Shown: one piece after another, positions 28,986-32,549 of the stretch
Layout of the letters: the number at the start of each line of letters is the position of its first letter
Numbering within the stretch: position 1 is the first letter of the stretch
NCBI RefSeq assembly: GCF_045037415.1
Contig: NZ_CP173438.1
Reading direction: 5' to 3' (one strand)
DNA from: Escherichia coli
GTDB lineage: Bacteria; Pseudomonadota; Gammaproteobacteria; Enterobacterales; Enterobacteriaceae
DNA: 64,000 bases
The notes under the pieces: model-generated
Told to the model about the DNA's origin: nothing
Database searches by the model: none
Seen by the model: only the letters and a program-made list of their open reading frames with translations
Position numbers and translations under genes: made by a program

Positions 28986-29936
28986 TTATAGTTTGGCGGC
29001 AAGAAGATCTTCCAGTTTGCGTTGATCAACGGCGAACAGACGAATGCCTTCAGACAGTTTTTCTACCGCCATCGCATCCTGATTGTGCTCCCAACGGAAC
29101 TCTGCTTCGCTCATGGGAGCTGGGCGTGGGAACGTCTGAGAAGGTGGGATTAATTTACGTACCACTGGCGAAACTTTTTCCTGTAGCTCCTTCAGCAAAT
29201 TCGGTGCGATAGTCAGTCGGTCGCAGCCGGTTAAGGCGAGGATTTGTTCGGTGCGACGGAAGCTCGCGCCCATCACAATGGTTTCATAGTGGTGTTGCTT
29301 ATAGTAGTCGTAGATATTGCGTACTGATTTAACGCCTGGATCTTCTTCCACCACATACGGGTCCATCGGCTTGCGTGCCTGATACCAGTCATAAATACGC
29401 CCGACAAATGGCGAAATCAGAAAAACGCCTGCTTCTGCACAGGCCCGCGCCTGTGCAAAAGAAAACAGCAGCGTCAGGTTGCAGTTAATACCTTCTTTTT
29501 CCAGCTCTTCTGCCGCGCGAATTCCTTCCCAGGTCGAAGCCAGCTTGATCAGAATGCGCGATTTCTCAACGCCTTGTTGCTGATACAAATCCACCAGATG
29601 GCGCGCCTTCTCAATACTCTTTTCTTTATCAAAAGAGAGGCGTGCATCAACTTCTGTTGACACGCGACCGGGTACGATTTTGAGAATTTCAGCACCGAAA
29701 TTGACCGCCAGTTTGTCACACGCTGCGACCACCTGTTGTTCCTGGGTCTTGCCATTTTTTTTACCCCAGGCGATAGCATCGTCTATTAAATGCTCATATT
29801 GTGATAATCCGGCAGCCTTGAGTAACAGCGAAGGATTGGTGGTGGCATCCTGGGGATGATAATGGCGAATGGACTCAATATCGCCGCTGTCTGCCACGAC
29901 AGTGGTGAACTGTTTGATGCCGTCTAACTCGTTCAT
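28986..29936 (-). CDS. talA: Transaldolase A
   Basis: 316 aa, [42 protein letters not shown]... Confidence 0.97.
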
Positions 29937-30224
29937 AGGAAATACTCCTTGAAAAGTAAAGTGTTAGATGAGTGCGTTAATTCACACTTCTGAGAAATTT
30001 CGCTAAACGCATCAAAAAAGCATAGCAGACAGGCATGGTATTGCTGGATTAAGCAGGTAACATCAGTGTTATATGATTATTACCAAAACATTATATTAAT
30101 GGTGAGAGTTTGGACTTGCTCAAAGTCTGTAGACTCCGGCAGGGTAATAATGTGCGCCACGTTGTGGGCAGGGGCTGTTGCCCACACAATTTATTTGTGA
30201 ACGTTACGTGAAAGGAACAACCAA

Positions 30225-32504
30225 ATGGATGACCAGTTAAAACAAAGTGCACTTGATTTCCATGAATTTCCAGTTCCAGGGAAAATCCAGGTTTCTCCAA
30301 CCAAGCCTCTGGCAACGCAGCGCGATCTGGCGCTGGCCTACTCACCAGGCGTTGCCGCACCTTGTCTTGAAATCGAAAAAGACCCGTTAAAAGCCTACAA
30401 ATATACCGCGCGCGGTAACCTGGTAGCGGTGATCTCTAACGGTACGGCGGTGCTGGGGTTAGGCAACATTGGCGCGCTGGCAGGCAAACCGGTGATGGAA
30501 GGCAAGGGCGTTCTGTTTAAGAAATTCGCCGGGATTGATGTATTTGACATTGAAGTTGATGAACTCGACCCGGACAAATTTATTGAAGTCGTCGCTGCGC
30601 TCGAACCGACCTTCGGCGGCATCAACCTCGAAGACATTAAAGCGCCAGAATGTTTCTATATTGAACAGAAACTGCGCGAGCGGATGAATATTCCGGTATT
30701 CCACGACGATCAGCACGGCACGGCAATTATCAGCACTGCCGCCATCCTCAACGGCTTGCGCGTGGTGGAGAAAAACATCTCCGACGTGCGGATGGTGGTT
30801 TCTGGCGCGGGTGCCGCAGCAATCGCCTGTATGAACCTGCTGGTAGCGCTGGGTCTGCAAAAACATAACATCGTGGTTTGCGATTCAAAAGGCGTTATCT
30901 ATCAGGGCCGTGAGCCAAACATGGCGGAAACCAAAGCCGCATATGCGGTGGTGGATGACGGCAAACGAACCCTCGATGATGTGATTGAAGGCGCGGATAT
31001 TTTCCTCGGCTGTTCCGGCCCGAAAGTGCTGACCCAGGAAATGGTGAAGAAAATGGCCCGTGCGCCAATGATCCTGGCGCTGGCGAACCCGGAACCGGAA
31101 ATTCTGCCGCCGCTGGCGAAAGAAGTGCGTCCGGATGCCATCATCTGTACCGGTCGTTCCGACTACCCGAACCAGGTGAACAACGTCCTTTGCTTCCCGT
31201 TTATCTTCCGTGGCGCGCTGGACGTTGGCGCAACCGCCATCAACGAAGAGATGAAACTGGCGGCGGTACGCGCGATTGCAGAACTGGCCCATGCGGAACA
31301 GAGTGAAGTGGTGGCTTCAGCGTATGGCGATCAGGATCTGAGCTTTGGTCCGGAATACATCATTCCAAAACCGTTTGATCCGCGCTTGATCGTTAAGATC
31401 GCTCCTGCGGTGGCGAAAGCGGCGATGGAGTCGGGCGTGGCGACGCGTCCGATTGCTGATTTCGACGTCTACATCGACAAGCTGACGGAGTTCGTTTACA
31501 AAACCAACCTGTTTATGAAGCCGATTTTCTCCCAGGCTCGCAAAGCGCCGAAGCGCGTAGTTCTGCCAGAAGGGGAAGAGGCGCGCGTTCTACATGCCAC
31601 TCAGGAACTGGTAACGCTGGGACTGGCGAAACCGATCCTTATTGGTCGTCCGAACGTGATCGAAATGCGCATTCAGAAACTGGGCTTGCAGATCAAGGCG
31701 GGCGTTGATTTTGAGATCGTCAATAACGAATCCGATCCGCGCTTTAAGGAGTACTGGACCGAATACTTCCAGATCATGAAGCGTCGCGGTGTCACTCAGG
31801 AGCAGGCGCAGCGTGCGCTGATCAGTAACCCGACAGTGATCGGCGCGATCATGGTTCAGCGTGGCGAAGCCGATGCAATGATTTGCGGTACGGTGGGCGA
31901 TTATCATGAACACTTTAGCGTGGTGAAAAATGTCTTTGGTTATCGCGATGGCGTTCACACCGCAGGTGCAATGAACGCGCTGCTGTTGCCGAGTGGTAAC
32001 ACCTTTATTGCCGATACCTACGTCAATGATGAGCCTGATGCAGAAGAGCTGGCGGAGATCACCTTGATGGCGGCAGAAACTGTTCGTCGTTTTGGTATTG
32101 AGCCGCGTGTGGCTCTGTTGTCGCACTCCAACTTTGGTTCTTCTGACTGCCCGTCGTCGAGCAAAATGCGTCAGGCGCTGGAACTGGTCAGGGAACGTGC
32201 GCCAGAACTGATGATTGATGGTGAAATGCACGGCGATGCAGCGCTGGTGGAAGCGATTCGCAACGACCGTATGCCGGACAGCCCTTTGAAAGGTTCCGCT
32301 AATATTCTGGTGATGCCGAACATGGAAGCTGCCCGCATTAGTTACAACTTACTGCGTGTTTCCAGCTCGGAAGGTGTGACTGTCGGCCCGGTGCTGATGG
32401 GGGTGGCGAAGCCGGTTCACGTGTTAACGCCGATCGCATCGGTACGTCGTATCGTCAACATGGTGGCGCTGGCCGTGGTTGAAGCGCAAACCCAACCGCT
32501 GTAA
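30225..32504 (+). CDS. maeB: NADP-dependent malic enzyme (malic enzyme fused to PTA-like domain)
   Basis: 759 aa, [47 protein letters not shown]... Confidence 0.97.
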
Positions 32505-32521: not shown

Positions 32522-32549
32522 CGCTTACCCTGAATATTCAGGGTAAGCG
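32522..32549 (+). terminator. Perfect inverted repeat downstream of maeB (probable terminator hairpin)
   Basis: cgcttaccctgaa tat tcagggtaagcg 13 bp stem; no clean T-run, so confidence limited. Confidence 0.45.

Follow-up and report, generated by a model that had tools for sequence, protein, structure and literature searches.

The talA-maeB locus and the mapped maeB promoter

To characterize a putative stem-loop located upstream of maeB, we analyzed a stretch of 64,000 nucleotides of E. coli DNA (hereafter, the window) in which talA (28986-29936, minus strand) and maeB (30225-32504, plus strand, ATG at 30225) are transcribed divergently. The product of maeB is the NADP malic enzyme of central metabolism. 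Of 5426 complete E. coli genomes, 5424 contain the talA-maeB region (29900-30300) at no less than 95% identity, annotated as tal and maeB, and the source of the window is E. coli. Positions were related to K-12 through its annotation, window position p corresponding to NC_000913.3 coordinate 2608602 - p. Position 30189 is A in the window and C in K-12 and most E. coli (CACAATTT vs. CACACTTT), and the 85-nt leader segment of the window was matched at at least 99% identity by only 559 of 5425 records. At the other end of maeB, a perfect palindrome with 15-nt arms (CGCTTACCCTGAATA / TATTCAGGGTAAGCG; 32522-32549) begins 18 nt past the stop codon. It has an energy of -20 kcal/mol and a poor U-tail (GTTTAGC; d = -18 by the terminator score described below), and is probably the maeB 3' hairpin.

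Published transcription start mapping, performed by 5'-triphosphate enrichment during exponential growth in M9 glucose, reported a single maeB start at NC_000913.2 2576520 on the minus strand, supported by 611 reads and giving a UTR of 121 nt, in a table restricted to starts reaching at least 50% of the strongest signal and to glucose (Kim 2012, PMC3415461). By K-12 coordinate mapping, this start (P1) corresponds to G30104 on the plus strand of the window. The -10 hexamer of P1, TATATT (30092-30097, plus strand; -12 to -7 of G30104), was located from the sequence and from a 51-nt published promoter string, and is not conserved in Salmonella. An ArcA~P site at 2576527-2576569 was described at -49 to -7 of the maeB start, and maeB is 4.9-fold derepressed in the absence of ArcA (Park 2013, PMC3798270). 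This operator, which consists of four direct repeats overlapping the -35 and -10 elements of P1, spans 30055-30097 (plus strand), and its numbering implies the same start as that of Kim 2012, G30104. It coincides with the block of strongest conservation between talA and maeB, which in other genera reads GGTAACAT…TGTTATA…GATAACAA. A consensus sigma-70 scan of this intergenic region found no promoter.

Inside the leader, a dyad TTTGG-N6-TCAAA (30109-30124) is followed, after a fixed 21-nt spacer, by a -10-like AATAAT (30146-30151), both on the plus strand. The whole block (30109-30151, plus strand) is ungapped and of high identity across the Enterobacteriaceae alignment, and is found also in Salmonella, Klebsiella, and Phytobacter. 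Judging from its sequence, it is a candidate second promoter (P2) that would start transcription near 30158/30159. The AATAAT is followed by a GC-rich GTGCGCC, and the geometry of P2 fits a class II CRP/FNR-type promoter with a site centered at -41.5 from ~30158; the P2 block itself sits within the mapped P1 leader (+6 to +55). We found no experimental start near 30158/30159, the Kim 2012 table holding only strong glucose starts, and no support for CRP control of maeB in the accessible literature (1.23-fold, glycerol vs. glucose). If P2 exists, the stem-loop described below would lie ~5 nt from the 5' end of its transcript. The idea of a 5'-terminal stabilizer, which depends on P2, was downgraded once the ArcA operator data supported P1.

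A perfect 8-bp stem-loop in the maeB leader

Our analysis confirmed a stem-loop on the plus strand between the P2 block and the maeB start codon. Its 5' arm TGTGGGCA (30163-30170) is fully complementary to its 3' arm TGCCCACA (30179-30186), and the loop GGGGCTGT (30171-30178) contains no GGA. The arms are paired in both the minimum free energy (MFE) and the centroid structures and form eight perfect pairs, five of them G-C, while a G30171·U30178 wobble is a possible ninth pair. The stem ends 38 nt from the maeB ATG, in agreement with the distance of about 40 bp given by the original prediction. That prediction had the hairpin right, including its 8-bp stem, but set its interval (30162-30187) one unpaired base too wide at each end and wrote out a string of 25 nt for these 26 positions. 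It had also left to start mapping the matter of whether the hairpin is transcribed or lies upstream of the promoter. Because the published start is G30104, which precedes the hairpin, the element is transcribed at +60 to +83 of the maeB mRNA and belongs to its 5' leader.

The isolated 31-nt hairpin piece folds at -15.0 kcal/mol (z = -2.75; 2 of 200 shuffles equally good), whereas an 81-nt fold around it has a z-score of only -0.18 and the 59-nt variable region one of -1.14. Perfect 8-bp stems with loops of 3-10 nt gave 38 seed hits in the window (~21 distinct hairpins), compared with 10.3 ± 4.4 seed hits expected per window from first-order Markov simulations; the chance expectation for a 121-nt leader is ~0.02. 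When the local G/C-rich sequence was shuffled with its dinucleotides preserved, an equally stable hairpin adjacent to a U-run arose in ~25% of trials. The perfect 8-bp hairpin is therefore only moderately more than chance, with a signal that vanishes in sequence context, and its place inside a short leader is mildly noteworthy and, alone, not statistically compelling. E. coli genomes carry the element once (median of one place per genome), which rules out a repeat family. A scan of 29500-30700 against Rfam 15 found no family matching the hairpin; its two matches, both elsewhere in that segment, were at chance level (E of at least 1.3).

Variation within Escherichia

The stem is perfect in the K-12 type. 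In the UTI89 type, found in 13 of ~70 E. coli-like metagenome contigs, the substitution G30168A creates an A·C mismatch that weakens the hairpin from -14.3 to -7.9 kcal/mol. RMDEC465 combines a G·U wobble in the stem with a 1-nt deletion in the loop, L147 has a U·G wobble, and two non-coli Escherichia-like contigs (91.6% and 93.4% maeB identity) carry 6-8 bp versions of the stem with mismatches. Taking these variants together, two pairs are broken in some lineages, three show wobble changes, and none is changed on both sides, so that covariation within Escherichia was rejected. The most variable columns of the 76-nt Escherichia alignment are those of the hairpin and its tail. As read from these alignments, the pattern is no positive evidence of selection on pairing. 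It should be noted that the three single-sided substitutions stay paired only as G·U on the plus strand, and such wobble changes would fit an RNA element of the plus strand better than a DNA element.

Orthologous leaders in other genera

We compared orthologous leaders from species-representative genomes, from Salmonella, K. pneumoniae, and Phytobacter contigs, and from a metagenome scan anchored on the conserved upstream blocks, which yielded 120 loci and, together with the named genomes, 42 unique leader sequences. Three blocks are conserved in Enterobacteriaceae leaders: the ArcA block; TTTGG-N6-TCAAA followed by 21 nt, nATAMT, and GCGGC (30109-30157); and GA-N-CGA-N-ACGTGAAAGGAA (30198-30229), which is almost invariant across genera. 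The last two of these blocks are separated by a stretch that varies in sequence and in length (46-101 nt when counted from the -10-like box to the ATG). This is the stretch that contains the E. coli hairpin, the sequence of which was not found outside Escherichia in the orthologous leaders compared.

A GGTG…CACC helix of 5-9 bp can form in all 22 unique leaders of the Enterobacter/Klebsiella type. By scripted count, its loop contains a GGA (typically CAGGAU or CAGGAA) in 20 of these 22 leaders, and a U-run directly follows the stem in 17, as read by eye from the table. In the K. pneumoniae leader (L083), the place of the E. coli hairpin, ~55-40 nt before the maeB ATG (1501), is taken by GAC-AGGAUG-GUC, a hairpin whose hexaloop holds the CsrA consensus. 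In Salmonella and Citrobacter, different GC-rich stems precede CAC-TTTTT(T)G and reach d ~ -6 to 0. In the MAFFT alignment, the loop of E. coli, CAGGGGCTG, falls under CAGGATCG, that is, the CAGGA(U/A)CG motif of other genera. Across 14 orthologues, leader stability was not above that of shuffles (mean z ~0), and a conserved, unusually stable leader structure was rejected on this ground; nor were the hairpins adjacent to U-runs stabler than shuffles (p = 0.07-0.84). From these sequences we reasonably infer that a stem-loop and U-run may form a conserved module that presents GGA in some genera and has decayed in Escherichia, and we put it no more firmly because covariation in the GGTG…CACC helix is limited and stability is not above shuffles.

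Ribosome binding site and upstream ORF

The Shine-Dalgarno sequence AAGGAA (30212-30217, plus strand) begins 25 nt downstream of the stem end, and the start codon lies in the context AUGGA (30225-30229, plus strand). GGA is the core of CsrA sites. Two motifs of this type occur here, 13 nt apart, at 30214-30216 (within the Shine-Dalgarno sequence, AAAGGAAC) and 30227-30229 (AUGGAUG), a pair that may constitute a dual CsrA site at the ribosome binding site.

The effect of the stem on ribosome access was modeled in silico with partition functions, in the P1 leader and in a shorter one, for variants in which either arm or both arms were complemented, for the natural G30168A, and for a deletion of the hairpin. 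The opening energy of the ribosome binding site was 5.0-5.7 kcal/mol for the wild type and 5.0-7.6 kcal/mol for the variants, with an inconsistent pattern; that of the left-arm mutant was close to the wild type. The same hairpin appeared in the MFE structure whether the leader construct was 157 or 102 nt long. In these models, the hairpin behaves as a self-contained module that would barely affect the opening energy, and occlusion of the ribosome binding site was rejected, given the inconsistent shifts. The suggestion that the hairpin is a 5'-UTR structure affecting maeB translation thus holds as to its place in the transcribed 5' UTR, but the effect on translation finds no support, considering the 25 nt that separate it from the Shine-Dalgarno sequence and the inconsistent energies.

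We also identified a 16-codon upstream ORF (MCATLWAGAVAHTIYL, then stop; 30150-30200, plus strand) that spans the hairpin, in the frame of a longer ORF at 30066-30200 and preceded by a weak AGGG Shine-Dalgarno sequence. It is frameshifted in the strain RMDEC465 and the contig L120, its ATG is missing in several genera, and on this comparison it is probably fortuitous. Attenuation through a leader peptide was ruled out for the same reasons.

A possible modest effect on mRNA fate or a neutral by-product

Our leading interpretation, held tentatively and with somewhat less than even confidence, is that the hairpin, an autonomous stem-loop of the 5' UTR, influences the fate of the maeB mRNA modestly at most. 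It would represent, in Escherichia, a stem-loop and U-rich tract that is loosely conserved between the promoter-proximal leader and the Shine-Dalgarno block of enterobacterial maeB leaders. In Enterobacter/Klebsiella-type leaders, this stem-loop may present a CsrA-type GGA, while in Escherichia decay of the loop would have left GGGG in its place, and other bases would have come to form the stem. The E. coli hairpin is predicted to fold alone, to make no contact with the ribosome binding site, and to lie too far from the U-tract for efficient termination. As a stable leader structure, it may impede RNase E on its 5'-to-3' path to the AU-rich stretch that follows, and it may cause a local pause. 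We infer that it is homologous to the GGA hairpin found in other genera, and likewise infer any effect on mRNA stability; selection on the hairpin would be weak. This reading, which includes the homology, is supported by the stem and its energy, by transcription, self-containment, and positional counterparts in other genera, by the plus-strand G·U bias, and by the known control by CsrA. Counting against it are the lack of covariation, the UTI89-type mismatch, the high variability, and a stability not above that of shuffles.

These same observations give considerable weight to a second explanation, in which the hairpin has no selected function and is a lineage-specific by-product of a fast-evolving leader spacer rich in G/C runs, which forms and changes nothing measurable. 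Such a neutral origin is nearly as likely as a modest effect on mRNA fate, and we regard it as a serious possibility that falls well below an even chance. Within Escherichia, no part of the leader varies more than the hairpin region, a common E. coli variant has a mismatch in the stem, and no compensatory changes occur; stability is ordinary for the local composition, chance alone would give a window of this size about 10 seed hits for perfect 8-bp hairpins, and no effect on the ribosome binding site was seen in silico. Against a purely neutral origin, some stem-loop and U-run occupies the same place in most genera examined, and three Escherichia lineages (92-100% maeB identity) all retain a 6-8 bp version of the stem.

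A more specific proposal, which we consider doubtful, is that the GGA-loop hairpin and its U-run constitute an undescribed enterobacterial maeB module which, in competition with a small 5' hairpin, would act as an attenuator or as a decay switch that responds to CsrA; the copy in E. coli would be decayed or rewired. If true, Escherichia/Salmonella and Enterobacter/Klebsiella would differ in how CsrA controls the malic enzyme.

Less likely readings: leaky termination, CsrA or Hfq binding, and operator function

The hairpin is followed by the tail CAATTTATTT (CACTTTATTT in K-12; 30187-30196, plus strand), which is terminator-like by a simple scan and includes a U-rich tract proper at 30190-30196. 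This raises the possibility of a leaky intrinsic terminator, in which the hairpin and UUUAUUU would stop some transcripts before the coding region, and an alternative pairing, or else a bound protein, would set the degree of read-through. The simple scan accepts the hairpin with its tail (9 pairs, 6 T in 8), and a GC-rich stem-loop is present on the transcribed strand (8-9 bp, 5 G-C, -15 kcal/mol). The U-run at the position of the tail is conserved in Salmonella, Citrobacter, and Enterobacter, and in the counterparts from Salmonella and Citrobacter, which have the borderline scores given above, the stem is drawn up to it. In E. coli, however, the U-tract is interrupted and starts 3 nt past the stem (tail CAAUUUAUUU), and no U-tract adjoining the stem passes the discriminant. 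With our own implementation of a d'Aubenton-Carafa-type score (d), the hairpin has a T-score of 0.79 and d = -45, ranking ~230 of 3046 candidates in the window. As a yardstick, the clear terminators of the same window score d = +5 to +31, the three best canonical intrinsic terminators being those at 10824-10845, 2192-2216, and 55752-55775 (all plus strand; d = +31, +9, and +5, respectively). The published Term-seq tables, which cover three conditions in LB and M63 glucose only, list no 3' end near maeB among the entries checked, namely maeB, b2463, talA, tktB, eutS, and coordinates 25783-25785xx (Adams 2021, PMC7815308). A candidate competing antiterminator can be drawn on the 5' side, with analogous pairings in other leaders, but it amounts to only a 4-bp CCAC/GUGG pairing against the 8-9 bp of the stem. 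An efficient terminator in the E. coli maeB leader is excluded, and a leaky one is improbable.

Less probable still is that the loop serves as an upstream contact for CsrA (or Hfq), which would cooperate with the GGA of the Shine-Dalgarno sequence to repress maeB. According to published work, a reporter carrying the maeB leader is repressed by CsrA, and the maeB mRNA is stabilized in csrA51, that is, destabilized in a CsrA-dependent manner. This repression and the GGA at the Shine-Dalgarno sequence are what a CsrA-binding hairpin would call for, as is the CAGGA in the loop at the homologous position elsewhere, such as that of K. pneumoniae, and the U-rich tract that follows the hairpin is a further point in favor. 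The E. coli loop (GGGGCUGU), however, lacks the GGA found in 20 of 22 Enterobacter/Klebsiella-type leaders, and the start codon is already flanked by two such motifs. In addition, the maeB sites of a published CsrA model (mostly at -12/-13, also at -17 to -25 and -76, taking an unlabelled table to give offsets from the start codon) seem to miss the loop. The main text of Sowa 2017 makes no mention of maeB.

Finally, the original prediction had offered a protein-binding palindrome as an alternative, that is, DNA bound by a transcription factor controlling maeB and/or talA, and although the 8-bp dyad is perfect and the control region divergent, this is the least credible reading, with a pattern of variation that argues strongly against a sequence-specific operator: the palindrome lies 60 bp downstream of the mapped start with half-site centers 16 bp apart, its half-sites are kept in no other genus although the neighboring blocks are conserved, it is polymorphic in E. 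coli within the most variable region of the Escherichia leaders, its substitutions preserve only G·U pairing, which is meaningless for DNA symmetry, and the only mapped site that we found in accessible papers is that of ArcA at 30055-30097.

Taking the modest effect on mRNA fate as the preferred reading, the hairpin is an undescribed but ordinary structural element in the leader of a gene already known to be under ArcA and CsrA control. For maeB engineering or the modeling of CsrA regulation, it is relevant that the 121-nt leader holds a stable stem-loop, that common E. coli lineages differ in its stem, and that other enteric genera have a GGA-loop hairpin at the same position.

Comparison with known regulatory stem-loops

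The maeB hairpin shares features with three types of known elements. Like Rho-independent terminators and attenuators, it combines a GC-rich stem with a downstream U-rich tail, on the sense strand of a leader, and its Salmonella and Citrobacter counterparts are borderline terminators. The E. coli element differs from terminators in its displaced and interrupted U-tract and in having no 3' end in the published Term-seq tables, while the features that would mark a leader attenuator come down to a candidate 4-bp pairing and an unconserved upstream ORF.

A second resemblance is to CsrA-binding hairpins of the glgC type, which have a GGA in a short loop and a second GGA at the Shine-Dalgarno sequence. 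The E. coli hairpin occupies the same place as the GGA-loop hairpins of Enterobacter/Klebsiella, in the leader of a published CsrA target with a GGA at its Shine-Dalgarno sequence, but its own loop has GGGG instead of GGA.

Lastly, the hairpin can be compared with E. coli 5'-UTR stem-loops that shape mRNA decay as obstacles to RNase E. The 5' stem-loop of ompA is the classical stabilizer of this kind and lies only a few nt from the 5' end. The maeB hairpin differs from it, as it starts at +60 of the mapped mRNA and is weakened in natural variants; it has in common with these elements that it is a stable, autonomous leader hairpin, in an mRNA regulated at the level of stability, located shortly before a single-stranded AU-rich stretch.
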